DNA of 32,000 nt from NCBI RefSeq assembly GCF_000025945.1, contig NC_006138.1, positions 2,610,001 to 2,642,000 of the forward strand, given 5' to 3'. Of the stretch, positions 1,668-31,920 are shown piece by piece. Position 1 is the first letter of the stretch, and each line of letters starts with the position of its first letter. Under the pieces are notes generated by a model. The model did no database searches, had not been told where the DNA came from, and worked only from the letters and a program-made list of their open reading frames with translations. The position numbers were made by a program, and so were the translations under genes. This DNA is from Desulfotalea psychrophila LSv54 (GTDB taxonomy: Bacteria; Desulfobacterota; Desulfobulbia; Desulfobulbales; Desulfocapsaceae).

Positions 1668-2600
1668 CTATTCAGCAGATGGTGGAGCAACTGACAGTCG
1701 CCTCTCACCAGGGGCAACCCGAACAGTGCTACCCAGCAAAAGGGGGTGATTATCCATGATATGTCCCGAACGAATACCTGCCAGAACAGGGATATTACGC
1801 TTGCCAACAATTTCCAGCAGCCGAGACCATACCATCTCCCTATGGCGCATTTTCTCCATTGAAGACTCATGTCCACTTACAGAAAAATCACCGAGGAGAA
1901 TCCCGGCAACATCTTTGAATTTGCCTGCATAGGCAAGTTGGGTCAACATTCTATCAATCCGATAAATGGGCTCACCCACGTCCTCTAAAAAGACAAACTT
2001 ATCTTTCCAGCTTATGTCAAAGGGAGTGCCCAGGACAGTGCTTAGGGAGGTGAGATTGCCGCCGACAAGTGTACCCGTACCGCCTGCCTCCCCGTGCAGT
2101 AGTTCCAGGTCACGCTCACAGAGCATCTGCTGAAGATCTCCCGTGAGCATTGCCTGAAGAGCTCGCACGGAGCTGCGAGATGCAGTTGCCAGAGAGGTGA
2201 CAACGGGTCCATGAATTGCTGGCAGACCGATCCTGTCGAGGAGGTAGTTTTGCAGAAGACTGATGTCTGAAAAGCCTAAAAGATATTTGGGTGTTTTCTT
2301 TATCTCTTTCAGCTCAAGAAATTCGAGCATGCGAAGTACGCCATAGCCACCCCGCATACAGATAAGCGCCTGCACCTCTTCATCTGCCCACATCTTATGA
2401 AATTCCAGGGCTCGATTCTCGTCGGTATCTGCCAGGTAATCACTACCGGGCCAGAGCTTACGAGGGAAACGGAGACGATAACCAAATCCTTCGAGTATAT
2501 GCAGCCCCTTGTAAAAGGCATCGCTGTTGCTAAGCCGGCCAGAGGGAGCAATGACACCAATGGTATCGCCTGGTTCCAGTGCTTTTGGTTGAAGAAACAT
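1668..2600 (-). CDS. ldcA: LD-carboxypeptidase (peptidase S66, muramoyltetrapeptide carboxypeptidase type)
   Basis: ORF 1668..2657. Motifs GDTIGVIAPSG, GFSDIS (nucleophile Ser) and the C-terminal GH..DN.PL.LG are S66 hallmarks. I place the start at the internal ATG (complement of 2598-2600, MFLQPKALEPGD...), which avoids a 47-nt overlap with coaX. 2657 and 2633 remain alternative starts. Confidence 0.8.
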   Translation of the reverse strand: MFLQPKALEPGDTIGVIAPSGRLSNSDAFYKGLHILEGFGYRLRFPRKLWPGSDYLADTDENRALEFHKMWADEEVQALICMRGGYGVLRMLEFLELKEIKKTPKYLLGFSDISLLQNYLLDRIGLPAIHGPVVTSLATASRSSVRALQAMLTGDLQQMLCERDLELLHGEAGGTGTLVGGNLTSLSTVLGTPFDISWKDKFVFLEDVGEPIYRIDRMLTQLAYAGKFKDVAGILLGDFSVSGHESSMEKMRHREMVWSRLLEIVGKRNIPVLAGIRSGHIMDNHPLLLGSTVRVAPGERRLSVAPPSAE

Positions 2601-2610
2601 TTTGTCCTGT

Positions 2611-3411
2611 TTATTGTTTTTTCTTGAGGGCATGAAGAATAAGCTCCATGGCATCAAGGGTCAGAAGCTTATCTATATGTTCAATTGTGGTGGTAAAGGG
2701 TTCAATAAGATTTGCCATGCCGCCGGTGGCAATGACCTCTGCCCGGCGCTTTCCACCAAGCATCTCCTTCTGAATACCTTCAACAATACCGTCAACCATT
2801 GCCCCATAACCATAGAGAATTCCGCTTTGCATAGCATGAACGGTGTTCTTGCCTATAAGAGAGGAAGGAACGTCGCGCACATCAACCATGGGTAGTTTTG
2901 CCGTTCTTGTGGCCAAGGCATCAAGGGAAATGGCAATGCCAGGAAGAATAACCCCGCCAATATAGACACAATCCGAGGTAACACAGTCAAAGGTGATTGC
3001 AGTGCCAAAATCAATGACAATAAGATCCGTTTTCCTTGTATGCCAGGCACCATAGGCATTAACAAGACGATCAATACCCACCTCATGTGGATTGTCTGTC
3101 TCCACCCGAACCAAGGGGGCAAGTTTTGTCACAGAGAGATCCATTACAGGTTGGTTCAAGTGCTTGCCAAAATGCCTCTCGCAGCAACGAATCCAGGCTG
3201 AAGAGAGGGTGGGTACCACACTTGCCAGAACTATATCTGTGATTTGCCGGGGATCGATGCCCTCCATAATAAATAGGCCATGATAACGAATAGCAAGTTC
3301 ATCAGAAGTTCTGTCCCTGTCCGTTTTCAATCGCCAATGACCAATTAATTTTCCATGGTCGTATAATCCTGTTACTGTATGTGAGTTACCAACATCTATA
3401 ACTAAAATCAT
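2611..3411 (-). CDS. coaX: type III pantothenate kinase
   Basis: ORF 2611..3519. The family-typical N-terminus MILVIDVGNSHTVTGLY begins at the ATG that is the complement of 3409-3411. Other family motifs present are DRLVNA, VIDFGTAITFD and GGVILPG, plus the C-terminal ATGG. Confidence 0.88.
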   Translation of the reverse strand: MILVIDVGNSHTVTGLYDHGKLIGHWRLKTDRDRTSDELAIRYHGLFIMEGIDPRQITDIVLASVVPTLSSAWIRCCERHFGKHLNQPVMDLSVTKLAPLVRVETDNPHEVGIDRLVNAYGAWHTRKTDLIVIDFGTAITFDCVTSDCVYIGGVILPGIAISLDALATRTAKLPMVDVRDVPSSLIGKNTVHAMQSGILYGYGAMVDGIVEGIQKEMLGGKRRAEVIATGGMANLIEPFTTTIEHIDKLLTLDAMELILHALKKKQ

Positions 3412-3920
3412 AAAAAATCCTTCAAAACAAAAAGCTGTCTCCAGGGGAGACGGATAAATAATTACGTGAACAGCTACCAACAGCGTTTTATGTAGATCTT
3501 CTCTTTGCAAACGGAACACGACTGGCGTATAACGTGCATGCTACTTTTTTGCCATACTGATCACGATATGTAAAGCTACTATCCTGTAGAGGACGCGCTA
3601 ACATAGTATAGTATTTTAAAAATGGAAATAGAGGATAGGACAAAAAAGGGTTATTATCATGAGCGAAAGACCGGAGCAGAACAGAAAAAAAGAGTCCACG
3701 CCTGATTTGTTATTAAAAACGCCTTAAAATTACAGCAAACCTTGACGCTGTCCAAAAAAAATCCCGCTCAGACAAGGCCTACTATGGGAAAAGCAATAAA
3801 ACCGATGAGCAAGATCATAGGGTGGTTGAAGATCTGCAAGAAAAGATGCATCATAATGATATATCCAAGAGAGTTGCTTTTAACACTAATAATATTCTGA
3901 TTAAGTAAGCGAGGTCTGTG

Positions 3921-11316: not shown

Positions 11317-12060
11317 TCACCGTAATTTATGTCCCTGTATAAATGACTTAACCAAATCTGAATCGAACTGGACAAGTTCATCTAAAGTTCCCTCGATAAC
11401 TGTCTTCCCCTGATCGATCATAACAATTCTCTGAGATATTTCAAATATATCAGGTATTTCATGGCTAACCACAACACCTGTAAAGCCAAAAACATCCTTA
11501 TAATCCCTGATCATCTGATGGACCTTATTTTTTCGTACAGGGTCAAGTCCCGTGGTTGGTTCATCAAAGAGAATGATCTCCGGTTTGGTTATAAGGGCCC
11601 GAGCGAGGGCAACTCTCTTCTTCATCCCACCTGAAAGCTCAGCTGGATAAGAAGAGGCCGTTTGCTCTATTTCCAAAGTGGTCATAATCTCATTTACCTT
11701 ACCAGCAATGCTCTCTTTACTGAAGAGACCTTTTTCCGAAAGAGGCAGGGCAATATTTTGAAAAATTGTTAATGAATCAAAGAGAGCATTATCCTGAAAC
11801 ATATAGCTGAATTTTTTCCTAAAGGTCCGCTGTTCCGACCTCGTCATATCATCGGTGCATTTACCCTCAAATTTTATAAGGCCGCTATCCTGCTGCATTA
11901 GGCCAATAATATGTTTAAGCAAAACACTTTTTCCACAACCACTTTTACCAATGATAACGGTAATTTCACCCCTATATATGGAAAGCGAAACCCCCCTCAA
12001 CACATGGTTATCACCAAAACTTTTTTCTACATCTATAAATTCAATCAGCGGTTCTGCCAT
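11317..12060 (-). CDS. mlaF: ABC transporter ATP-binding protein MlaF
   Basis: Walker A GKSGCGKS, signature LSGGMKKRVALARAL, Walker B ILFDEPTTGLDP, H-loop VVVSHE. Confidence 0.9.
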   Translation of the reverse strand: MAEPLIEFIDVEKSFGDNHVLRGVSLSIYRGEITVIIGKSGCGKSVLLKHIIGLMQQDSGLIKFEGKCTDDMTRSEQRTFRKKFSYMFQDNALFDSLTIFQNIALPLSEKGLFSKESIAGKVNEIMTTLEIEQTASSYPAELSGGMKKRVALARALITKPEIILFDEPTTGLDPVRKNKVHQMIRDYKDVFGFTGVVVSHEIPDIFEISQRIVMIDQGKTVIEGTLDELVQFDSDLVKSFIQGHKLR

Positions 12061-12114
12061 AATATTTACAATAAATTTATTTTTGTTATTTTATCGGTAA
12101 AAGGTCTTTCTCAG

Positions 12115-12903
12115 CTAAAGAAGAATATATGTGATCAGGTAATCATAAATCAGGATAAGAACACTGGAAGAGACAACGGCGTTGGTTGTTGCCAGGCTAA
12201 CAGCCCGTGAGCCAAAACCACCCTCCTTTTGTATATGCGCATAATACCCTTTAAAACAACATGTTGAGACAACAACAACGGCAAAAACAAGTGATTTAAT
12301 TATCCCGCTTCTAATATCCTCCATAACCACACTCTCGTGGACCCGGTACATATAGATATAACCGTTGACCTTTAGGGTTGTCGCTATGAAAAGACCACCA
12401 AATATACCAACAACATCAAAAATTGAGGTCAAAAGAGGAAAGCAAATTATAGAGGCAATGAGTCTCGGACTAAAGACAAATTTCACCGGATTAATATCCA
12501 TTGTCTGCAGGGCATCAAGTTGCTCAGATATCCTCATAGTACCTATCTCGGCGGCCATGGCAGAACCTGCTCTCGCCGTAATCATGATGGCGGTAAGTAC
12601 CGGTCCAAGCTCGCGGATAAGGGTGAGGGCAACAGCAGAGCCAAGCATGCCGGCAGAGCCAAATTTAGCCAGGGCGTAATAGCCCTGAAGGGCTAGGACC
12701 ATCCCTGTAAAAAATCCCGTTAAAATAACTACGGCCATGGACTTGGTACCAATAAACCAAATATTTTCAACTATTCTAAAAATTTGAAACGGCTTCTGAA
12801 AAATTTGACCTATACCTGTCAGTAAAAACAGACAAAAGCGCCCCAAATTTGTGACTCTGTCAATTGCCCAGGAACCAATTTCTTCAACTTTAAATGTTAA
12901 CAT
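12115..12903 (-). CDS. mlaE: ABC transporter permease MlaE
   Basis: 262-aa polytopic membrane protein. The MlaE-family segment is LIRELGPVLTAIMITARAGSAMAAEIGTMRISEQLDAL. It is the first gene of the cluster. Confidence 0.88.
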   Translation of the reverse strand: MLTFKVEEIGSWAIDRVTNLGRFCLFLLTGIGQIFQKPFQIFRIVENIWFIGTKSMAVVILTGFFTGMVLALQGYYALAKFGSAGMLGSAVALTLIRELGPVLTAIMITARAGSAMAAEIGTMRISEQLDALQTMDINPVKFVFSPRLIASIICFPLLTSIFDVVGIFGGLFIATTLKVNGYIYMYRVHESVVMEDIRSGIIKSLVFAVVVVSTCCFKGYYAHIQKEGGFGSRAVSLATTNAVVSSSVLILIYDYLITYILL

Positions 12904-13168
12904 GAATTATTACTTATATTTATATTATTGCGAGCACCAATGCCATCAATGCCGTTCGGCAAATGCTCCAAGGGATGGGAGCACCCTGGATACATTAAGC
13001 CCAACTCAAAACCATGAACCAAAAAAAGCACGAAGTCATTATGATCAAAAAACAACTATCTAATTTGTTTTAAAATTCTTAACAAGAAAAATCTTTAAAA
13101 AAATATTGCTCAGGCCTTTTCATGCATTTGCCAGTCAGAGTTTTTCGGCCACGCCCCTCAATAAAAAC

Positions 13169-14473
13169 TTACTCTGGCCAAAGTTCATCAAGCCAATCAA
13201 AAACCAGCTCAGCCATAAGGCTCCGATTTTCCCCTATACAATGCGAGGAGGCCCCTTCATCTTCCGGAGTAACGATAAGGGTTTTGTTCTTGCTTCCTAG
13301 CTTAGCCATAAACTCCTGTTGCTGCCGCTCAGTTTCCCGATTTACATACTCACCGGCACCGACAAGATCCAAAACGGGACAGGTAATAAGGGCTGGATTA
13401 AATTGAAATCCTCTGGTCTGCTCCGTCTGGCCCTTAATGTTTTCCGGCTCGAGCCCCCAACGCCAGGTCACTCCGGAGGTAACAGCCTTTTTGAAGGCCG
13501 GCCAGGAATCAATCTGCTCCTGACTCTCCTTTGAAAAAGGCATCTCTTTAAACATCAAGTAGTTATCAACGACAGCACTGCTGACAACAATGGCCTTTAT
13601 TCTCTTTTCAAGCGTGGCGGCCCGGGGGACAAAATAACCACCATTGCTGATGCCATAAACGGCAAGCCTTTCAGGATCAATCTCGGCAAAATCCAAGATG
13701 ACATCAAGGATGGCCTTCATCTCTATCTCTGTATCCTTTTTAAAGAACAGGCCTTCAGAGGGCAACATCCCCTGACCGGGAATATCGACGGTAACAAAGT
13801 TATAGCCACGAAGGATAGCCTGTGGCTCAATATAAAAAATATTATCCTCAACAAAGGTCTCCCCCCCACCAATCATCAGGAGTGTCTTCCGGGCTGTACC
13901 ATTCTGCTGGACAGGGCGGTAATAACCAGGAAGAACGGTTCCCGCAAAGGGCACCTCAAAATAGATCATGGCCGGGGAAAAGAGGGGGGCTGCCGCCTGC
14001 ATGCAACTGCGAACTTTTTTAGAAATAGTATTGAATTTGCCATCACTTACTGAGCGTGAAACCAGAGCTGTTCTATAATAGTTGGATGCCTTGAGAAGGC
14101 ATTGGCGAGCCGTTATCAAATGTCCTGCATCTAAAGCCCTTCGGGCCCGAAGCTCTTTTCGCAGGGCCATCCTTTCCCACTCATCCTGCCAGCTCTTAGG
14201 ATTACCGTCCTCTATATGAGCCGCCACATAAAATGCTTCGCCTATCTCGGCGCCGCCGTTGACAATACTGCCCAGAAGCCACTGAAAGGCAAAATCCATC
14301 TCATTATCGGTAAAGTGAAATCTGGTATAGGAACGATGAGCATCATAGACCTCTTTTTGCGCAGACTTCATTTGCGAAAGTCCTCTCTCTTCTGCCGCAG
14401 ATATTCTCAGCAGGGGAAGAAGAGGAGTGTTTATCAGACTAATAAATAGAGTGCAGATAATTATGACTTTCAT
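13169..14473 (-). CDS. secreted alpha/beta-fold hydrolase
   Basis: 434 aa with an N-terminal signal/TM segment. It has the nucleophile elbow GISNGG (GxSxG) in an alternating beta-alpha context, with a helical cap-like N-terminal half. Confidence 0.7.
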   Translation of the reverse strand: MKVIIICTLFISLINTPLLPLLRISAAEERGLSQMKSAQKEVYDAHRSYTRFHFTDNEMDFAFQWLLGSIVNGGAEIGEAFYVAAHIEDGNPKSWQDEWERMALRKELRARRALDAGHLITARQCLLKASNYYRTALVSRSVSDGKFNTISKKVRSCMQAAAPLFSPAMIYFEVPFAGTVLPGYYRPVQQNGTARKTLLMIGGGETFVEDNIFYIEPQAILRGYNFVTVDIPGQGMLPSEGLFFKKDTEIEMKAILDVILDFAEIDPERLAVYGISNGGYFVPRAATLEKRIKAIVVSSAVVDNYLMFKEMPFSKESQEQIDSWPAFKKAVTSGVTWRWGLEPENIKGQTEQTRGFQFNPALITCPVLDLVGAGEYVNRETERQQQEFMAKLGSKNKTLIVTPEDEGASSHCIGENRSLMAELVFDWLDELWPE

Positions 14474-14501
14474 AGATATCCTCTGGGTAAAATGAACCAG
14501 G

Positions 14502-14729
14502 ATGCCCGCGGCCAGGAAATTTTCTCTAATGATTTCAATATTAGTAATGGTTTCAGTATTGGTAATGATTATAGACTACCCATACCCCATAAAGCAAAAA
14601 ATAGATGGAGAGGAACAGGGTCTTTCTCTCAGCACATTCCCCGAAAAAAAACAGGCCTATTCTATTAAACAACTGATCGACATCTATAAACAAACCAATA
14701 AGCCCCCTCCTACAACACAAACTGACTAG
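14502..14729 (+). CDS. hypothetical small membrane protein (75 aa)
   Basis: The only support is one clear hydrophobic helix (LMISILVMVSVLVMII) and a position divergent from the hydrolase gene. There is no convincing RBS. Confidence 0.25.
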   Translation: MPAARKFSLMISILVMVSVLVMIIDYPYPIKQKIDGEEQGLSLSTFPEKKQAYSIKQLIDIYKQTNKPPPTTQTD

Positions 14730-15434
14730 TCAGGTAATAGCAAGAACTAGACTGAATGAGTAAAGCCAGCCAGCATTGAAATTTGCATTCAAGAGATAGG
14801 CTTGAATAGAGCTAGAGATAATTCCAGCCAAGAAAGCAAAGCTTATTGTGAAGGGAAGATTGATCTACAGACAGGGGCCTTGATAACATCGCTCCCCTGC
14901 CCGACCTACTGCTGAGCGAAGAGCTCTTTGCCCCGTTTACAGAGACGAAAGAAACCGCCATTTGCCGGATCGGAGCGAGAGGACAAATGTGACAGTGATG
15001 TGGACAGAAAATGGACAAGGGCAACCTTAATTACTATCCAATGTGAGACCACAAAATATTTTTTCCCTCTCCTTTAACAAATATGGAGTCCAGTTCCGGA
15101 ACAACCCTCTGCTGTAATTCCTGAAATGTCTCAGCTCCTGCCTGATTGAATAGATCCGGTTTCTGTCAATCTAACACCTCTCAACTCTACGGGCAGGGAG
15201 AGCAAACAGGACGGCTGAGATCAGCCACCATAGGTTCTGGTTAACATTTTAACCAATAACAACTAGTTAAACTATATTAAATCATCGTAAATACGATATT
15301 CATCCCAAAGGCTTTTGAGACTGGTTCTAGAGATATAAAGAGATTTTTCCTTGCAGCTTCATTCTTCAGCGCCCTCTACCTGTTAATAGATTTAGCTGAA
15401 AGTTGGCTGATCTCCTCAGAGGAAAACACACCTG

Positions 15435-23202: not shown

Positions 23203-24345
23203 TCATTTAGGAAGGACATCTCCTGTTTTCTTTAACCCCTGAGACAAACCGGACTGGCCAAGAGGACGTGTTTCGCCAATTTTCATAATCCAAAGCCTCT
23301 CCTCAGAAAGGCCATTATCAAGCCCGGCCCTGCTAAACCGTTTTGGCGGTTCCCAGGTCGGCTCATCCGACAAACCAATTGTTCCCCAGTGTGAGGCTAT
23401 CAGGGTGAATGCCCGAATTTCATTGCCGACGGTAACTGCCTCTTCGGGGTTGATATGTGACATCCTCATCAGTTTTCTGGGTGCATAGGCACCGATGGGC
23501 AGAATGGCGTAGTCAAGTGGACCATACTGCCTGCCGATCAGTTTGAATATTGTCTCGGAATATCCGGTGTCACCGACAAAGAGCATTTTTTTGGTAGAAC
23601 TCTCTATCAGCCACGATGCCCACAGGGTTTGATTGCGATTTTTTATACTTCGTCCTGAATTGTGAATGGCAGGTAGGGCAGTTAATGTCAGCTCGCCAAG
23701 TGCGATTGATTCGTTCCAGTCTAACTCTGTTACCCTCCCATATCCCCGTTCACTGAAAAACGATTTTAAGCCCAGGGGGACTACAACCTCAATTTTATCT
23801 TTATCTAAACAGCGAACGGATTCATCGTCCAGGTGGTCATAGTGATCATGTGAAACAATAATAATATCTATCGGCGGCAGCCTATCCATGGGGATTCCCG
23901 CTCCTGCAAACCGCCTGGGGCCCGCCCAGGAAAGAGGGCTGGCAAATTCCGTCAAAAACGGATCTGTCAGTATCGTTTTACCTGAAACCCTGATAAGAAA
24001 GCTTGCATGCCCCAGCCAGGTTATCCGATCGCCACCAATGGAACTGAGCGATTTCATCGCCTCTGCTTCAGGTACCCAATGTCCATTCGGGATGGAAGGA
24101 AGAAAGATAGAGCTCCAAAGTCTGCGCAGGTAGAACGGCAGACCTTTAGGAGCGGCTGTCTGCACAGGGGGATAATTTTGAAATCCGTAGGTGGTGTGAT
24201 GTGGGGCCCTTCCCATAGTTTCGTCATTGCTTTCTGCAGGCATGACAGAATATCCTAAGGTGAGAATTAAAAAGAGTGCTGCGCCAATGATAGTCAATAA
24301 ATTTTTCATAGTTCGATGCGCTACCCCTAAGAGCCGGGCCGACAT
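23203..24345 (-). CDS. MBL-fold metallo-hydrolase, NAPE-PLD-like (Lactamase_B_2 type), membrane-anchored
   Basis: ITWLGHASFLI...ILTDPF...PPIDIIIVSHDHYDHLD matches the NAPE-PLD-like MBL pattern. There is an N-terminal TM helix. The alternative start MKNLL is at the complement of 24307-24309. Confidence 0.8.
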   Translation of the reverse strand: MSARLLGVAHRTMKNLLTIIGAALFLILTLGYSVMPAESNDETMGRAPHHTTYGFQNYPPVQTAAPKGLPFYLRRLWSSIFLPSIPNGHWVPEAEAMKSLSSIGGDRITWLGHASFLIRVSGKTILTDPFLTEFASPLSWAGPRRFAGAGIPMDRLPPIDIIIVSHDHYDHLDDESVRCLDKDKIEVVVPLGLKSFFSERGYGRVTELDWNESIALGELTLTALPAIHNSGRSIKNRNQTLWASWLIESSTKKMLFVGDTGYSETIFKLIGRQYGPLDYAILPIGAYAPRKLMRMSHINPEEAVTVGNEIRAFTLIASHWGTIGLSDEPTWEPPKRFSRAGLDNGLSEERLWIMKIGETRPLGQSGLSQGLKKTGDVLPK

Positions 24346-25919: not shown

Positions 25920-26509
25920 CTGCGCTCCCCCCTGTTTTTTTAGTTATAAATAATCTACTTAAGGTTTGGTAAGCTACAGCAGGGCAGCTGCCACCGGCAG
26001 TCTATCCTCGCACACATCCTGCCCACGGGATCGTTAATCCTATCATGGCAGACAGGCCCACAGCAAATCGTAAGTACCCTGACTAAGCATATGAAACTTC
26101 GACCTACGATTGCTAGGCCCCCCGCCAGTGATGGGGCTCTTTTAAGGACCGCTATGGGCGTGATGGTTGGGGGAGACATCCTGGAATGATTATTTGATGG
26201 AACTAAGGGCAAGCTAGGGGTATAGTCGGATATGCCCTGTCATTATAATGGGTTGTCTTGGCTGAATGGCCTGCTCTATCCCATGGATGACACGGAGACT
26301 CTGTTCTATGTCTGTTGCTTGATATTGGGATATATGGGAATGGGTAGCATGGAACAAAACTGTTATATCCGAAGACATATTCTTCTATATAGACACTGGA
26401 AAATAACAATAACCAGAATGAATGACAGCACAGTTATCTTATTTTTTAAGGGAAGGCATTCCCGTTCCAATTCTTGTGTTGGTGTTATCTATATTAATAA
26501 AATAATTAC

Positions 26510-27580
26510 ATGGAAGATACTTATAATATGATTGTTAAAATTCAAAAAGATAGCTCAAGACTTTCAAACAAAATAATCATTTATGCAATTGATGCAGGAG
26601 AAGGAGACTGTATACTGCTACATCAGCTAGATACTGACGTTAAAATATTAATCGATTCTGGGCCAAGTAAAGGAGAAGGAAGATTAAGTGTATATAATGC
26701 CCTATCTGAAATATTAGAAGGCGATAATTTCATTAATTTAGCGCTGGTAACCCATAATGATGATGACCATATAGGTGGTTTTATAGATTTGATTGATCAT
26801 AATATTATTGAGGTCGATACTTTCATATTCAATGATTCGTCTTATATAAAAAAACTCTTTCCCGTAAATGATGGTAAATACTCTTTAAGACAAGATGGAA
26901 ATCTACAACATGATATACTAAAGAATAAAATTAAACATTTACATAATCAAACTGACAGTGAAAGATTGAGCAGTTACTCTTACAGAGATTTCAAGTTTGA
27001 TTTTTTATCTCCAAACTATGAAAAACTTAAAATATACAATAGAGAAATAGGTAAACAGGAAACAAAACTTGAAAAAAAGAAGAAGTTTTCAAAACAAAAA
27101 AATATCGTCCCTCCCACTAAAGAACAACTCCAAGAACTAATCAGTGAACTAAAAGAGAACGATATTTTTGTTGAAGATAATAGACCAGCAAATGGCACTA
27201 GCTTAGCCTTTAGATTAAAAATTGGAACCAAGAGATTTCTTTTCTTAGGTGATTCGCATCCATCTTTAGTTACAACTCAACTGAAAAAATTGGAGGACAC
27301 TGTTTTTGATCTATGTAAATTATCACATCATGGAAGTGAAAAAAATACAAGCCCAGATTTACTTTCTAATATTAAATGTAAAGATTTCTTAATTTGTAGC
27401 AATGGTTGCAGGCATGGACATCCATCGCTAAAAACCATTGCAAGAGTTTTAATATCAGAGCCAAAATCTAAATTTTACTTTAGCTCAGACAGCGTCGAAA
27501 TTAAAAATTTAACAAATTCTATACCAATTATTAAGGAGTTTGCAAAATCTGGTTATTTAAAGGTTGAGTATGTGTATTAA
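26510..27580 (+). CDS. ComEC/Rec2-type MBL-fold hydrolase (candidate effector 1)
   Basis: 356 aa. IYAIDAGEGDCILLH...ILIDSGPS, then LALVTHNDDDHIGG (an HxDxDH variant of HxHxDH), FLGDSHP and KLSHHGSEKN are the ordered motifs of ComEC-like metallo-beta-lactamase domains. The alternative start is the ATG at 26528. Confidence 0.8.
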   Translation: MEDTYNMIVKIQKDSSRLSNKIIIYAIDAGEGDCILLHQLDTDVKILIDSGPSKGEGRLSVYNALSEILEGDNFINLALVTHNDDDHIGGFIDLIDHNIIEVDTFIFNDSSYIKKLFPVNDGKYSLRQDGNLQHDILKNKIKHLHNQTDSERLSSYSYRDFKFDFLSPNYEKLKIYNREIGKQETKLEKKKKFSKQKNIVPPTKEQLQELISELKENDIFVEDNRPANGTSLAFRLKIGTKRFLFLGDSHPSLVTTQLKKLEDTVFDLCKLSHHGSEKNTSPDLLSNIKCKDFLICSNGCRHGHPSLKTIARVLISEPKSKFYFSSDSVEIKNLTNSIPIIKEFAKSGYLKVEYVY

Positions 27581-28733
27581 TAACTATGCTGTGAGCGTAG
27601 AAGTTGCTGGACAGCAACCTCATGAAAGTAGTGGTTTTATTTTGAAAACTTTATGTAATTCAAAAAGTTTAATATTAACTTCAAAACATTCAGTTTGTAT
27701 AGAAAGAAACTTGTGCACAGACATTACCATTGATAAAAATAGTTGTAGAAAATGCAAAGCAAAACTTGATCACACCAAAATTTCTATTATCTTCAAAAAA
27801 ATTAAAATAACGCCACAAAACGTGTATGCCTCTGCAAGAACTGATGTTGCATTACTCGAGGTTGAATATGTAGAGGATGCTCCATTTCTTTCGCTAACAA
27901 ATGAAAATGAAAACAAGTATGTAGCTTGGTATAATTTGGGAAATGATCGATTTCTATTCGACAATCCAGAGATTCCAAATGATGGCCTTATCAAATTTAA
28001 CATTGCATCTAATGTAAATGCAGACTTAAAACCCAAAAAAAGAATGTTCGTGGGAGTTTCAGGTAGTCTAATCTTCAAAAAGATCAAAGAAACTTATTAC
28101 CCTGAAGCTATTCTTACAGAAGATGGGGGTGGTAATGACATTGGAGCAGAACAACTGGACAGAACACTTGTAAAGGAACTTGAAGAATTATCAGGTACAA
28201 TACTGTTCAATACTATAACTGATATAATTAACAAACAACCAGACAAAATACCCTCAACAAACAATGGCTCTTTATTTAATTTATTAGAAAAATCTAAGCA
28301 GTTATCTAGGTCAGACCAAGATTATAAATACATGATTGAAGAACTCACAGAGTTTTGCTCTGCCAGACCAGGAAGACCAATTATTGGACTCAAAAATAAG
28401 TTAATTGAAGGTCAAAGACAAGATTTGTTCTCAGATGCTGAATATTTGTCGAATAAATTTGCTAGACGTGTTTCAGCAGGACAGTTCTCCGCTACCGATG
28501 AAGTGATTTTCTTTCATTGTTTAAGTATGATTAATTCTGTTTTCACACAGTCTATTTCATCTTCAATAAAAAACGGAGCTAATGACAAGGAAATAGACAA
28601 AAAAATACTGGACGAAATAGTACTTCCACTATATTTAGAAGTAAGTAAGTTTGCACTTTCAATTTCTACAGAAATGATCACAGGAATGCTGTACTTTCTC
28701 ACAGGTAAATGCCATATAAGGTGGAATAAATGA
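27570..28733 (+). CDS. trypsin-like serine protease fused to a helical C-terminal domain (LmuA-like / ABC-3C effector component)
   Basis: Track ORF 27564..28733 has a TTG start. The ATG at 27570 follows aaagg. Triad-like motifs occur in the canonical order: LILTSKHSV (His), TDVALLEV (Asp), GVSGSLIF (Ser). A ~190-aa helix-rich C-terminal half follows. The start overlaps the upstream stop by 11 nt. Confidence 0.75.
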   Translation: MCINNYAVSVEVAGQQPHESSGFILKTLCNSKSLILTSKHSVCIERNLCTDITIDKNSCRKCKAKLDHTKISIIFKKIKITPQNVYASARTDVALLEVEYVEDAPFLSLTNENENKYVAWYNLGNDRFLFDNPEIPNDGLIKFNIASNVNADLKPKKRMFVGVSGSLIFKKIKETYYPEAILTEDGGGNDIGAEQLDRTLVKELEELSGTILFNTITDIINKQPDKIPSTNNGSLFNLLEKSKQLSRSDQDYKYMIEELTEFCSARPGRPIIGLKNKLIEGQRQDLFSDAEYLSNKFARRVSAGQFSATDEVIFFHCLSMINSVFTQSISSSIKNGANDKEIDKKILDEIVLPLYLEVSKFALSISTEMITGMLYFLTGKCHIRWNK

Positions 28734-29233
28734 TTATATACCATCCATATAAAGACGCCAACCATTGTGCATATCGTTTAATAAGCATTATGTATGGTAC
28801 AAACAATGCAGTTTCAAGAGATTTTCTCAATATAGCTGACTTCTATTATTTATTTCCAAGTAAATTAAAGGAAATCAACAATTGGCCTCGAAAAAATTCT
28901 AATGATTACAGAGCCGTTAAAGCAATTGAAAATTGCCATGAGAATCTTGATAATGCCAAAATGATATTTTATGAAATAAAGGAAATAAGACATAACACTT
29001 TCCTTAATTTAATATCAAGAGGAATCGTAATTGAAAGAAACAAGCACAATCAATTATATACCATGGAGCAATCTCTCCTGCCTGACTCTCTTATAGAATT
29101 GTTAAAAAAAGATGAATTTAGAGAATCTGAAGCTTACAGGATTATAACACAAAAAATGTCAAAAATACCATTGAATGGCGATACTGGATTAAAAGCTAAA
29201 ACAAGCTTGCTGGAGCATAGATATGACAATTAG
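28730..29233 (+). CDS. 167-aa helical protein, positional equivalent of LmuC / ABC-3C middle component
   Basis: ATGA overlap with the upstream gene (28730-28733) and an 11-nt overlap with the ATPase gene. I can recognise no catalytic motif. The assignment rests on size, position and operon context only. Confidence 0.6.
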   Translation: MIIYHPYKDANHCAYRLISIMYGTNNAVSRDFLNIADFYYLFPSKLKEINNWPRKNSNDYRAVKAIENCHENLDNAKMIFYEIKEIRHNTFLNLISRGIVIERNKHNQLYTMEQSLLPDSLIELLKKDEFRESEAYRIITQKMSKIPLNGDTGLKAKTSLLEHRYDN

Positions 29234-31124
29234 TAGATTAAAATTAAATCGTTTTTTGGTTATTCATGAGCAGCAGGCTATATATGATGAAACTTTCCAT
29301 GAAGGCATTAATGTCATCAGAGGAGAACACTCTGTTGGTAAATCAACACTTTTCGATTTAATTTATTATGTTTTGGGAGGTGATCTTAAAAAAGAAGAAT
29401 GGAGATATCCTACCAATGAGTGCACTGAGGTTCGCGCAGAAATCGAAATAAATAAAAAAACAATCACTCTCGCAAGAGAAATTTTAGCAGGTAAAAAACC
29501 AAAAATCAGGATGTTTGACGGTTGCTACGGAAAAGCTTTAAAAAACTATGGCAACTGGTTAAATTTTGGATCAGTACGATCTGATAATAAAGCTAGCTTT
29601 TCAGAAATGATGTTTGATTTATTTGGATGGGGACAACATAAGACAGAATCATTTAATAATTTAACAATGCACCAAATTTTAAGACTTTCCTACCTTAGTC
29701 AGTCATCAAAAACGACAAGCATATTCAGGGAGGAAATTGATAAACGCGGAGATAGCGGAAGTACTCGTAAAGCTATTGCAGAGTTTCTTTTAGGATTAGA
29801 TGACTTAACATCATATGATAAACGTCAAACAAAGGGTAAAAAACAGATAGAACTTGCAATATTTGAGGCAAACCGAGATAGTATCAAAAAAATTCTTGGT
29901 GATGACAGTGCCACTACTTTTAAAGATATAGAAACATTAATTAACTCAAAAAAATATATAATTTTTGATTTGATAGAAGAGAAAAACAACAAGTTGTCAC
30001 ATACTGATTCAAACAGCAACCATGCTATTGTTTTAAAAAGAGAAGAAATAATAACTACTATATCATATTATACAAAACTTATCAGTTTATCATTTAACAA
30101 AATTGAATTGATCCAAAGAGAAATTTCAGATTGTGATCTTTTCTCAAAAAGTCTTGAATTTAGAATAAAATCACTTGATGAATCTGAAAAAACATATAAA
30201 TCTCTAGGGAATATCTCTTTTAATTACTGTCCCTCTTGTTTCAGCCAACTCGACACAGTAGTTGCACATAACCAATGTAAACTTTGCAAAAAAATATTAC
30301 CTGATTATGATTTAACTGAAAAATACACAGAAACTCTTGCGGAGTTAAAATACCAGCAAAAGCAGAACACCAATACTATAAATAAGCTTCAAGTAGAATT
30401 GCAAAATAATGAAAATGAATACATAAAAAACAATGAAAAAGTAATGCTGCTACAAAATGAACTCAGCAATATCAGTACTCACTCAAACGAGAGAGAACTT
30501 ATAATCTCAAATTATACAAAAAGGATATCAAATGTTGAGTCAGGAATAATAGAATTGAATAAGAAAATCCCACTTATTCGGAATTTAGAAAAGTACAATA
30601 GAAGTATTTCTATAATTACAAAAGAGATATCTAAACTTGTGGAAGAAATAGATTCATTATCTGAACTCAGCAAAATTAGAAATAGGTCTGTTCTAAATAG
30701 TTTAGGTGAAACAGCTAGTGGGTTTTTAGAAAATGGGACTGGCAATGAAGAAGATTTCAAAATTGCTACTCAGAAAACAGTTGAAATTGATTTTGAAAAG
30801 GACAGATGGCTTCTTGGAGGCCGTATTAGTTTCTCAGAAAGCTCAAATGCTGAAAAAAAAAGTGCATTACATATTAGTTTTTTACTCCAGTCTCTTAAAG
30901 ATAAGCAAACACGTTATCCTCTTTTTTCGATTATGGACTTTGAATGTGCTGACTTAAACGAAGAGAGAAGCAAAAAAATACAAAATAATATCCTAAACTT
31001 ATTAAAAGATAAAGAAGGTTTCCAACTCTTAATAACATCATCCAAAATATCTCAGGAGCTTAATATTGAAGAATATGGGGTTGGACGTTATTACGGCAAA
31101 AATGATTACTTATTCAAAATCTAA
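29223..31124 (+). CDS. SMC/Rad50-like ABC ATPase with central coiled coil and four-Cys knuckle (LmuB-like / ABC-3C ATPase)
   Basis: 633 aa. The N-terminus is MTISRLKLNRF...INVIRGEHSVGKSTLFDLI (Walker A, Lys40), with a Q-loop-like YLSQ. About 300 aa of K/E/N/I/L-rich heptad-like sequence follow, with CPSC-x12-CKLC at aa 336-355. The C-terminus has a signature-like SESSNAEKKSAL, a Walker-B-like PLFSIMDFE and a D-loop-like ADL. Confidence 0.8.
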   Translation: MTISRLKLNRFLVIHEQQAIYDETFHEGINVIRGEHSVGKSTLFDLIYYVLGGDLKKEEWRYPTNECTEVRAEIEINKKTITLAREILAGKKPKIRMFDGCYGKALKNYGNWLNFGSVRSDNKASFSEMMFDLFGWGQHKTESFNNLTMHQILRLSYLSQSSKTTSIFREEIDKRGDSGSTRKAIAEFLLGLDDLTSYDKRQTKGKKQIELAIFEANRDSIKKILGDDSATTFKDIETLINSKKYIIFDLIEEKNNKLSHTDSNSNHAIVLKREEIITTISYYTKLISLSFNKIELIQREISDCDLFSKSLEFRIKSLDESEKTYKSLGNISFNYCPSCFSQLDTVVAHNQCKLCKKILPDYDLTEKYTETLAELKYQQKQNTNTINKLQVELQNNENEYIKNNEKVMLLQNELSNISTHSNERELIISNYTKRISNVESGIIELNKKIPLIRNLEKYNRSISIITKEISKLVEEIDSLSELSKIRNRSVLNSLGETASGFLENGTGNEEDFKIATQKTVEIDFEKDRWLLGGRISFSESSNAEKKSALHISFLLQSLKDKQTRYPLFSIMDFECADLNEERSKKIQNNILNLLKDKEGFQLLITSSKISQELNIEEYGVGRYYGKNDYLFKI

Positions 31125-31258
31125 ACAGCAAAAAAATAATTAGCCCAGATAACAAACACAGGCAGAAGAGTATAAAGAGCCGCTTCTGAAGTACAAAAGT
31201 TTTCGGGAGCGGCAATGTTGCAAAGATCAAATAAGTTAAAGAGGACACAGAAAAAGCA

Positions 31259-31285
31259 AGCTAATACCTTGCATTAGCTATTTTT
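31259..31285 (+). terminator. weak candidate terminator downstream of the island operon
   Basis: A 7-bp AT-rich stem agctaat (31259-31265) pairs with attagct (31273-31279) around a 7-nt loop, then aTTTTT. It lies 135 bp after the ATPase stop. The stem is short and weak. Confidence 0.3.
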
Positions 31286-31328
31286 CAGTACGGCTAGGCT
31301 TAGTGATATACCTTATTCTAACCATTAC

Positions 31329-31350
31329 CCCCCTCCTCCTCCATAATCAT
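31329..31350. repeat. 22-nt direct repeat, copy 1 (cccccctcctcctccataatcat)
   Basis: Near-identical to 31949-31970 (ccccctcttcctccataatcat). The two copies are 620 bp apart and bracket thpR. Confidence 0.7.
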
Positions 31351-31401
31351 GGATAGGCAGCAACTCAAAGAGGAACCTTAGATAATTCGGGGATTTTAAC
31401 C

Positions 31402-31920
31402 ATGAGACTGTTTTTAGCCATAGCCCTGCCCAGAGATGTAGAGAAGGTACTGCGGTCCTATCAACCCACTTCCGAAGCGTATATTAGAATCGTTAGTCAA
31501 CTCCATTTGACCCTGCATTTCCTGGGGGATGTGAAGCTGGCAGAGCTTGAGACGGCAATGTCTGATATCCGCTTTAAGGAGTTCAAGCTCAGCCTGGATG
31601 GCCTTGGCTGTTTTAAGGCAAATGGTAAATGCAGGACTCTGTGGGCCGGGGTGAGGCCAAATGAGGCCCTTCGACAGCTGTATGTCAGGATTGGTAAACG
31701 GCTTGAGGAGGCGGATTTTGAGCTGTATTCCCATCATTATTCTCCCCATATAAGCCTGGCCCGCTGCCAACGGAAGTACTCGGAGGAAAAAATCCAGCAT
31801 TTCCTGCAAATAAGGACCGAACCTTTAGAATTCAGGGTGGATCATTTCCTCTTATATGGTAGCGAGATTATAAATAATGTGCCCTTCTACAGGGCCTTGG
31901 CTAAATATGGGGCAAAATAG
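31402..31920 (+). CDS. thpR: RNA 2',3'-cyclic phosphodiesterase (2H phosphoesterase, LigT/ThpR family)
   Basis: 172 aa. MRLFLAI..P, then two HxT/S motifs at the expected spacing (HLTLHFLG and HISLAR), are the 2H superfamily signature. Confidence 0.85.
   Translation: MRLFLAIALPRDVEKVLRSYQPTSEAYIRIVSQLHLTLHFLGDVKLAELETAMSDIRFKEFKLSLDGLGCFKANGKCRTLWAGVRPNEALRQLYVRIGKRLEEADFELYSHHYSPHISLARCQRKYSEEKIQHFLQIRTEPLEFRVDHFLLYGSEIINNVPFYRALAKYGAK

Follow-up and report, generated by a model that had tools for sequence, protein, structure and literature searches.

The operon and its products

A stretch of 32,000 nucleotides from Desulfotalea psychrophila LSv54 (NC_006138.1, positions 2,610,001 to 2,642,000, forward strand; hereafter the window, in whose own numbering all positions are given) contains four overlapping, co-directional open reading frames (ORFs) at 26510/26528-31124 on the + strand, according to the ORF listing. 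They are here called genes A to D, and most likely constitute a defense cassette of the Lamassu family. An earlier note, made from the letters alone, had regarded the four genes as one operon, and the three overlaps that it quoted turned out to be exact. Gene A, whose stop codon is at 27578-27580, overlaps the ATG of gene B at 27570, genes B and C are joined by an ATGA at 28730-28733, and the ATG of gene D at 29223 overlaps the end of gene C (stop codon 29231-29233). A purine-rich, Shine-Dalgarno-like run is situated 7-10 nucleotides upstream of each of the starts of genes B, C, and D. All four reading frames are intact and the translational coupling is kept. The GC content of each of the four genes is 0.30-0.33, vs. 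0.46-0.47 in both flanks.

Gene A (26528-27580, + strand, 350 amino acids) is predicted to encode a ComEC-type pro-nuclease of the metallo-β-lactamase (MBL) fold. Its ORF reaches an ATG at 26510, which would give a protein of 356 amino acids; the ATG at 26528 is the more likely start, as it has a ribosome-binding site (GGAAGA) upstream and is also the start given by NCBI, where the product is named “ComEC/Rec2 family competence protein.” The protein matches Pfam Lactamase_B (E = 5e-08) and the PADLOC LmuA model PDLC03854 (1.9e-63). It also matches the NCBIfam Avs1a-like model at 1.8e-44, which is under the equivalog cut-off of that model, and PADLOC Avs1a (7e-35). The metal-site motifs, numbered from 26510, are H82-x-D84-x-D86-H87, D248/H250, H273-H274, and H304, and the ligands H-x-D-x-D-H, D248, H273/H274, and H304 are invariant. 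Structure models were made with AlphaFold2 (AF2) for genes A and C. The model of gene A has a predicted local distance difference test score (pLDDT) of 86.4, with low confidence only in the loops 111-130 and 171-195, and its best fold match in the PDB is the MBL (nuclease) domain of ComEC (9ic4). Relative to this ComEC domain, gene A has ~67 extra residues between two aligned conserved blocks, and the two low-confidence loops fall exactly in this interval.

Gene B (27570-28733, + strand, 387 amino acids) encodes a LmuA protein in which a trypsin-like serine protease (~residues 1-215) is followed by a variable linker and by the ABC-three-component (ABC-3C) C-terminal domain CTD9 (about 273-385; Pfam match at 275-387). 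The ATG at 27570, where all orthologs align, is taken as the start, in place of the TTG at 27564 given by the ORF lister. The product matches Pfam CTD9 (2.1e-31), Trypsin_2 (0.006), and the PADLOC LmuA model PDLC03855 (3e-10), and the profile of its protease domain matches the solved protease-HamA fusion 9wh1 (E = 2.6e-07). The catalytic triad is H40/D92/S164 in the ATG numbering and is invariant in orthologs and in every fusion context; the catalytic serine, formerly assigned to S167, is S164 when counted from the ATG or S166 from the TTG. Just past the catalytic histidine there is also a cysteine cluster, C-x5-C-x9-C-x2-C (C43, C49, C59, and C62, ATG numbering). The cluster is kept in every member of the protease family, including those of the fetched loci L012-L038, be they fused to CTD9, HamA, NACHT, or STAND. 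The arrangement resembles a zinc-binding or disulfide knuckle placed within the first β-barrel, and no mention of it was found in the main text of Tuck et al. (Science 2025, PMC12799240).

Gene C (28730-29233, + strand, 167 amino acids) encodes LmuC, the ABC-3C middle component of type MC5, with a winged-helix-like fold. The earlier note had described this protein as lacking recognizable motifs, whereas it matches Pfam MC5 over its full length (E = 2e-31) and is named ABC-3C middle component 5 by NCBI. No PADLOC LmuC model matched it. Its AF2 model, built with 55 homologs, has a pLDDT of 91.8, and the only high-probability PDB matches of the model are the LmuC chains 9ny5_C (TM-score 0.53, probability 1.00) and 9uxh_D (TM-score 0.48, probability 0.97), every other match having a probability <0.3.

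Gene D (29223-31124, + strand, 633 amino acids) encodes LmuB, a short SMC/Rad50-like ABC ATPase. Residues 1-620 match the PADLOC LmuB models PDLC03863 (5e-30), PDLC03859 (1e-29), and PDLC03862 (9e-28), and the N-terminus has weak matches to SMC_N, Rad50, and RecN; an exact-match lookup of the ATPase returned nothing. The Walker A motif is G34-EHSV-G39-K40-S41 and is invariant, and a Q-loop region lies around Q151. K40, as well as H82 and H87 of gene A (counted from 26510), had been correctly picked out beforehand. The putative coiled-coil arms cover ~200-335 and 360-500, of which residues 211-330 and 361-480 are almost free of proline and glycine. Two invariant CxxC motifs (C336/C339 and C352/C355) are situated at the apex. 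A signature-like motif, FSESSN, is found at 537-542, and the Walker B motif, FSIMD572, is followed by F573-E574 (window 30936-30944). The motifs are invariant in orthologs. Distant LmuBs linked to CTD9 and MC5 have hhhhD-[A/T/N]-I-E at this position. The subclade of gene D has a one-residue deletion, so that the aspartate is conserved, phenylalanine occupies the usual position of the catalytic base, and a conserved glutamate follows one residue further on. This D-F-E variant is common to all close orthologs, and therefore represents a trait of the clade and no lesion.

According to Li et al. (bioRxiv 10.1101/2025.03.14.643221), LmuACB, DdmABC, and ABC-3C are one and the same; the C-terminal domains of LmuA are classified there as CTD1-12 and the LmuC proteins as MC1-8, and a diverged sub-family combines CTD6-12 and MC2-8 with a LmuB of ~600 amino acids. 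Cyclic oligomers were predicted for the CTD9-type LmuAs in the same study. Haudiquet et al. (PMC12663957) reported that the protease and hydrolase effector occurs in short and long Lamassu alike, and that short LmuBs carry zero to two CxxC motifs. The product of gene B joins an effector domain to a family-specific C-terminal domain, as expected of LmuA, gene C encodes the LmuC component, and gene D has the N-terminal Walker A and the split head of LmuB together with the length of ~600 amino acids that characterizes short Lamassu. CTD9, MC5, and the 633-residue LmuB thus match these definitions, and the locus is therefore most likely a short (type II-like) Lamassu/ABC-3C system of the protease and hydrolase effector subtype, with an anti-phage and anti-plasmid role. 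The Lamassu/ABC-3C class that had been proposed is borne out by the Pfam CTD9 and MC5 matches, the PADLOC LmuA and LmuB matches, the fold match of MC5 to LmuC, and synteny, and profiles confirm the individual domain calls (ComEC-type MBL, protease-CTD fusion, SMC/Rad50-like ATPase). The subtype is already known: both DefenseFinder and PADLOC include it as the Lamassu hydrolase/protease subtype, in line with the earlier note, NCBI labels the MC5 and CTD9 proteins, and PADLOC models recognize three of the four proteins.

Loop motifs, relatives, and genomic setting

Pairs of an MBL nuclease and a trypsin-like protease have been repeatedly acquired by Hachiman, AVAST, Lamassu, and DRT systems (Tuck et al., Science 2025, PMC12799240). 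In that work the nuclease was described as a gated proenzyme, in which two disordered insertions block the active site. HamM is cut after a conserved isoleucine in each of the two gating loops, and defense by Avs1a depends on the cleavage. Protease activity requires oligomerization of the fused defense domain. The statement that no mechanistic work existed on this subtype is thereby outdated, since the pair has been dissected in Hachiman and AVAST and modeled for Lamassu (PMC12799240), and since the long hydrolase-protease Lamassu of Bacillus cereus B4077 has been shown to provide defense (cited in PMC12663957).

The two loops of gene A contain, in the numbering from ATG 26528, the motifs K-Y118-S (G-K-Y-S) and K-F187-S (K-K-F-S). 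The consensus of the MBL family is [K/Q]-I-S in both loops, and the enterobacterial members have Q-I-S twice, which corresponds to the published isoleucine sites. In the closest relatives of gene A, tyrosine, phenylalanine, or leucine takes the place of isoleucine at P1, and the position of the motif is kept. Among 120 homologs, both X and K/Q of [K/Q]-X-S agree between the two loops well above permutations: at 60% redundancy p < 0.0001 for P1 and p = 0.011 for P2, and at 50% p = 0.006 for P1, values to be read with the caution that the test is confounded by shared ancestry and that the crude motif picker makes some errors. Clades have their own pairs of residues (V/V, R/R, S/S, A/A, and Y/F), and the agreement between loops recurs in an independent set of 45 metagenomic loci. 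Several columns of the protease, among them the residue after the catalytic histidine and D185 in “TEDGG,” also track the class of the P1 residue; these were inseparable from shared ancestry and were discarded as evidence.

Five independent relatives have the same order of MBL, protease-CTD9, MC5, and LmuB, with protein identities to the window of 38-66%, which bears out the conserved gene neighborhood that the earlier note had asked to be checked. They are found in an Arcobacteraceae metagenome-assembled genome (L001/L004), in the short metagenomic contigs L002 and L003, in Vibrio fluvialis (L010), and in the metagenomic contig L038. In L001 the cassette lies beside a cytosine methylase, a MvaI/BcnI-type restriction enzyme, and a resolvase (11591-14948), and in V. 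fluvialis a phage-type integrase (2372-3691) is situated directly upstream. The core of CTD9, MC5, and LmuB also occurs without protease or MBL, with a CTD9-only protein of 185-209 amino acids, in Pantoea, Pectobacterium, Marinobacter, Sinorhizobium, and V. parahaemolyticus. Most systems with this core (L005 3699-6728; L006 5372-8404; L007/L008 5444-8434; L009 5420-8407; L011 5399-8377) have a CTD9-only LmuA of 175-215 amino acids that contains no recognizable effector, and the identity of MC5 and LmuB is 30-50%. Neighbors of the protease-free form include AbiH (L007, 8590-9501), an integrase and a MmeI-type restriction-modification (RM) system (L011, 8438-12498), further integrases, and Y1 transposases. 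Just upstream of the CTD9-only gene in L005, L006, and L009 there is an ORF of 114-124 amino acids belonging to no Pfam family, perhaps an effector that has become detached. When 1.84 billion representatives were searched exhaustively, 3 of the 146 hits with E ≤ 1e-10 matched the protease-CTD9 fusion over its full length, and >100 were CTD9-only. The fusion accompanied by an MBL is thus a rare form in a CTD9/MC5 clade that for the most part lacks effectors. The LmuA alignment found two loci only in a genome scan and none in a scan of viral contigs, and a tblastn search of plasmids and phages with LmuA yielded no match over the full length.

Wherever a fetched locus has a close MBL relative and sequence downstream of it, the very next gene carries the same protease domain. 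These proteases are fused to CTD9, HamA (PADLOC 1e-18), a NACHT NTPase, or a giant STAND protein. In L012 (3428-7565), the MBL is 55% identical to gene A, which makes it the closest one outside the Lamassu orthologs, and its loops have K-F-S and K-Y-S; its partner is a protease-NACHT STAND protein of 1,027 amino acids in place of a Lamassu core. This pairing reproduces the reported exchange of the nuclease-protease pair between sensor systems, and suggests that the aromatic-P1 pair was recently exchanged between Avs-like and Lamassu sensors. For many of the protease fusions of ~490-510 amino acids encoded after MBL genes, the C-terminal half matched nothing in Pfam or PADLOC (L015 1317-2777; L019 7938-9428; L022 7235-8698; L027 7917-9434), and only L013 scored HamA. 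The unmatched halves may correspond to the degenerate HamA domains that Tuck et al. described, or to something different.

The cassette is a compact, horizontally acquired insertion in D. psychrophila, as judged from its low GC content relative to the flanks and from its housekeeping neighbors. These neighbors are DJ-1/PfpI, glyoxalase, an unrelated MBL-fold protein, a LigT-like phosphoesterase, a CHASE histidine kinase, the Mla system, and topoisomerase subunits. Steps in GC content place the left edge of the island at ~26,250-26,300. An AT-rich leader (26231-26527, + strand, GC 0.36) precedes gene A and presumably contains the native promoter. Promoter-like matches are no commoner than expected from shuffled sequence (23 vs. 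22.6), and no specific promoter is therefore claimed. At the right border (31125-31401) the GC content rises from 0.32 to 0.47, and a terminator-like hairpin is found there on the minus strand (31279-31259); the next gene is that of the LigT-like 2′,5′ RNA ligase family (31402-31920), a housekeeping gene. No tRNA gene, no integrase, and no defense or mobile neighbors of the cassette were found in the window, and neither att-like direct repeats nor an Rfam family were found at the island borders. The unrelated MBL-fold gene mentioned above (23203-24345, minus strand) lies 2 kb upstream of the island, matches Lactamase_B_2 (6.5e-38), and has a hydrophobic N-terminus; it encodes a housekeeping-type hydrolase outside the defense cassette. 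An intergenic stretch of 280 nucleotides (25955-26235), rich in GC (0.52) and carrying a terminator-like hairpin at 26120-26136, separates the DJ-1 gene from the island. An RNA element at this place was rejected, as folding was no better than that of shuffled sequence (z = 0.86 and 0.18 for the two strands) and no Rfam match was obtained, and the stretch is probably ordinary. An ORF of 99 amino acids at 26232-26531, which lies across the GC border and is backed by no evidence, was taken as spurious.

Proposed activation cascade and its alternatives

In the solved Lamassu complexes, LmuB2-LmuC holds a LmuA monomer via its C-terminal domain; once DNA ends have been sensed, LmuA is freed and oligomerizes through this domain (10.1101/2025.03.14.643221). 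The gated pro-nuclease model has been proposed for Lamassu as well, though untested there (PMC12799240). Considering this mechanism, the findings of Tuck et al., and the two disordered insertions with matching, co-varying motifs in gene A, we favor the reading, with a probability of about three in four, that the locus is a Lamassu system with a protease-to-pro-nuclease cascade, the protease serving as activator and not as a second, parallel effector. By homology to the LmuA1B2C1 complexes, a dimer of LmuB and one LmuC would, at rest, grip LmuA by CTD9 and so keep it monomeric. LmuB and LmuC would then recognize DNA ends or replication intermediates of the invader, and ATP turnover would free LmuA, again as in the homologous systems. 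The freed CTD9 domains may oligomerize, bring the protease domains together, and switch them on, as suggested by the CTD-driven tetramer of Lamassu and by the oligomerization requirement of protease-HamA. The protease is predicted to cut the product of gene A in both gating loops, most likely after Tyr118 and Phe187, on the basis of the matching, co-varying motifs. The ungated ComEC-type nuclease would finally degrade DNA indiscriminately, leading to cell death or arrest, that is, abortive infection, as deduced from HamM and Avs1a.

Several points weigh against this reading. We infer defense, DNA sensing, oligomerization of CTD9, and cleavage of the MBL protein from homology, and we infer in the same way the sequestration and release of LmuA, the oligomerization-dependent activation of the protease, the cut sites, and the specificity of the DNase. 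The literature was found to contain no experiment on this locus, on its close relatives, or on any short Lamassu of the protease and hydrolase subtype. The co-variation of the loops carries the confounding by ancestry and the picking errors given above. The P1 residues in the loops of gene A are tyrosine and phenylalanine, vs. the conserved isoleucine, and the two motifs are 69 residues apart, vs. 100 for the published sites (I118/I218 and I134/I234; PMC12799240), so that the correspondence of the second gene A site to that of PflHamM and EpiAvs1a is a presumed one. Gene A is shorter (350 vs. roughly 370-390 amino acids), and the difference in spacing may lie between the two sites. The sequence profiles of MC5 and LmuB, when compared with the PDB, failed to reach the solved Lamassu chains, and fold comparison was therefore used; the resulting match to LmuC is modest (E = 0.02, TM-score about 0.5). 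Finally, the phenylalanine after the Walker B aspartate of LmuB is outside the published short-Lamassu pattern hhhhD[Q/S/T/E].

The earlier note had supposed that the ATPase licenses two different effectors, and this is probably wrong in detail. Such parallel effectors would be licensed separately, the protease degrading host or phage proteins and the MBL protein attacking nucleic acid or another substrate. The active sites of both enzymes are intact, other LmuA effectors hit cellular targets directly (PMC12663957), and additional protease substrates remain compatible with the data. However, the MBL protein lacks a CTD or any other module with which to dock on LmuB/LmuC, and parallel action is hard to match with its two disordered insertions, whose matching motifs co-vary between loops, or with the fact that MBL and protease travel as a pair under four unrelated sensors. 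In Hachiman, moreover, other proteins were left uncut by the protease and the nuclease was inactive until it was cut (PMC12799240), and we regard two separately licensed effectors as unlikely. An idea of a quite different kind, that the genes form a housekeeping module for DNA uptake or repair, with gene A as a ComEC/Rec2 competence nuclease and gene D as a SbcC/Rad50-like repair ATPase, takes its support from the NCBI name of gene A, from the ComEC domains that are its best PDB matches in both fold and sequence, and from the weak similarity of LmuB to Rad50, RecN, and SMC. Gene A, in contrast, is devoid of the membrane channel and OB domains of ComEC (350 vs. ~800 amino acids) and scores 33.9 bits against a ComEC cut-off of 190, and a SbcD/Mre11 nuclease partner is not present. 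CTD9 and MC5 are specific to conflict systems, and the cassette is a low-GC insertion whose relatives adjoin integrases, RM systems, and AbiH, all of which makes a housekeeping role very improbable.

It may also be asked whether a genuine but horizontally acquired Lamassu cassette has become a silent or decaying relic with no current function. The strongly atypical GC content, the lack of a recognizable promoter that stands out, and the non-canonical residue after the Walker B aspartate could be taken in this sense. D. psychrophila LSv54 presumably carries plasmids, which would argue against strong anti-plasmid activity. On the other side, the four frames and their coupling are preserved, every motif that is invariant in orthologs is retained, and the D-F-E variant is shared by all close orthologs; we consider a relic to be slightly less probable still than a pair of parallel effectors. 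Within the favored protease-to-nuclease cascade, the aromatic residues at P1 lead to a tentative idea, which we hold possible but rather doubtful, that cleavage by the protease of this clade has shifted from isoleucine toward residues that are aromatic or large and hydrophobic, and that both nuclease loops have changed in step. If this is true, nuclease-protease pairs would evolve into orthogonal lock-and-key sets, preventing cross-activation between defense systems in one cell, and the present case would be the first such switch in a short Lamassu, with CTD9-driven oligomerization as the trigger.

Comparison with known systems

The locus adds an intact example of a short Lamassu with protease and MBL, from a psychrophilic sulfate reducer (Thermodesulfobacteriota) that is distant from the enterobacterial and Vibrio models, and it supports the extension of the protease-gated pro-nuclease mechanism from Hachiman and AVAST to Lamassu. 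The matched loop motifs predict cleavage after Y118 and F187 and give a hint of specificity divergence at the level of clades. The aromatic P1 in both loops, the rare protease-CTD9 fusion, and the D-F-E Walker B are modest, local points. The understanding of the family is unchanged, and the value of the locus lies in annotation and in the choice of candidates for experiments.

The sole experimentally validated hydrolase-protease Lamassu is that of B. cereus B4077, a long one, which provides defense (Millman et al., 2022, as cited in PMC12663957). As in Desulfotalea, a separate MBL gene is located upstream of protease-LmuA, followed by LmuC and LmuB, and the PADLOC LmuA models for this type match both the MBL and the protease described here. 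The B4077 system has a LmuB of ~800 amino acids, a MC1-type, Mre11-like LmuC, a hhhhDD Walker B, and one CxxC, whereas the Desulfotalea locus is short, with a LmuB of 633 amino acids, MC5, CTD9, two CxxC motifs, and the D-F-E Walker B. Pseudomonas fluorescens HamMAB and Erwinia piriflorinigrans Avs1a/Avs1b (PMC12799240) share with it the homologous MBL pro-nuclease and trypsin-like protease, the nuclease gene immediately upstream, and the two disordered insertions with a repeated cut-site motif. The sensor is different, namely SMC-like LmuB/LmuC in Desulfotalea vs. the HamB helicase in Hachiman or a STAND NTPase in AVAST. The predicted P1 residues in Desulfotalea are tyrosine and phenylalanine at sites 69 residues apart, whereas in HamM and Avs1a, where cleavage has been demonstrated, they are isoleucines 100 apart.

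DdmABC of Vibrio cholerae and LmuACB of Salmonella enterica (9ny5 and 9uxh) have the same order of LmuA, LmuC, and LmuB, a LmuA in which an effector is fused to a CTD, a LmuB of ~600 amino acids with Walker A K40, and a LmuC of matching fold. These systems use as effector a Cap4 nuclease, which works directly in tetrameric form, whereas in Desulfotalea a protease is predicted to act on a fourth protein. The LmuB of V. cholerae has no zinc hook, in contrast to the two CxxC motifs of the Desulfotalea LmuB, and the similarity is below profile detection. The lipase-CTD9 LmuAs (Li et al., 10.1101/2025.03.14.643221) and the effector-less “clade O” (Haudiquet et al., PMC12663957) share the same core of CTD9, MC5, and LmuB. 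They carry a lipase or a CTD9-only protein, often with a small unannotated ORF upstream, whereas the Desulfotalea system combines this core with a protease fusion and a MBL protein.

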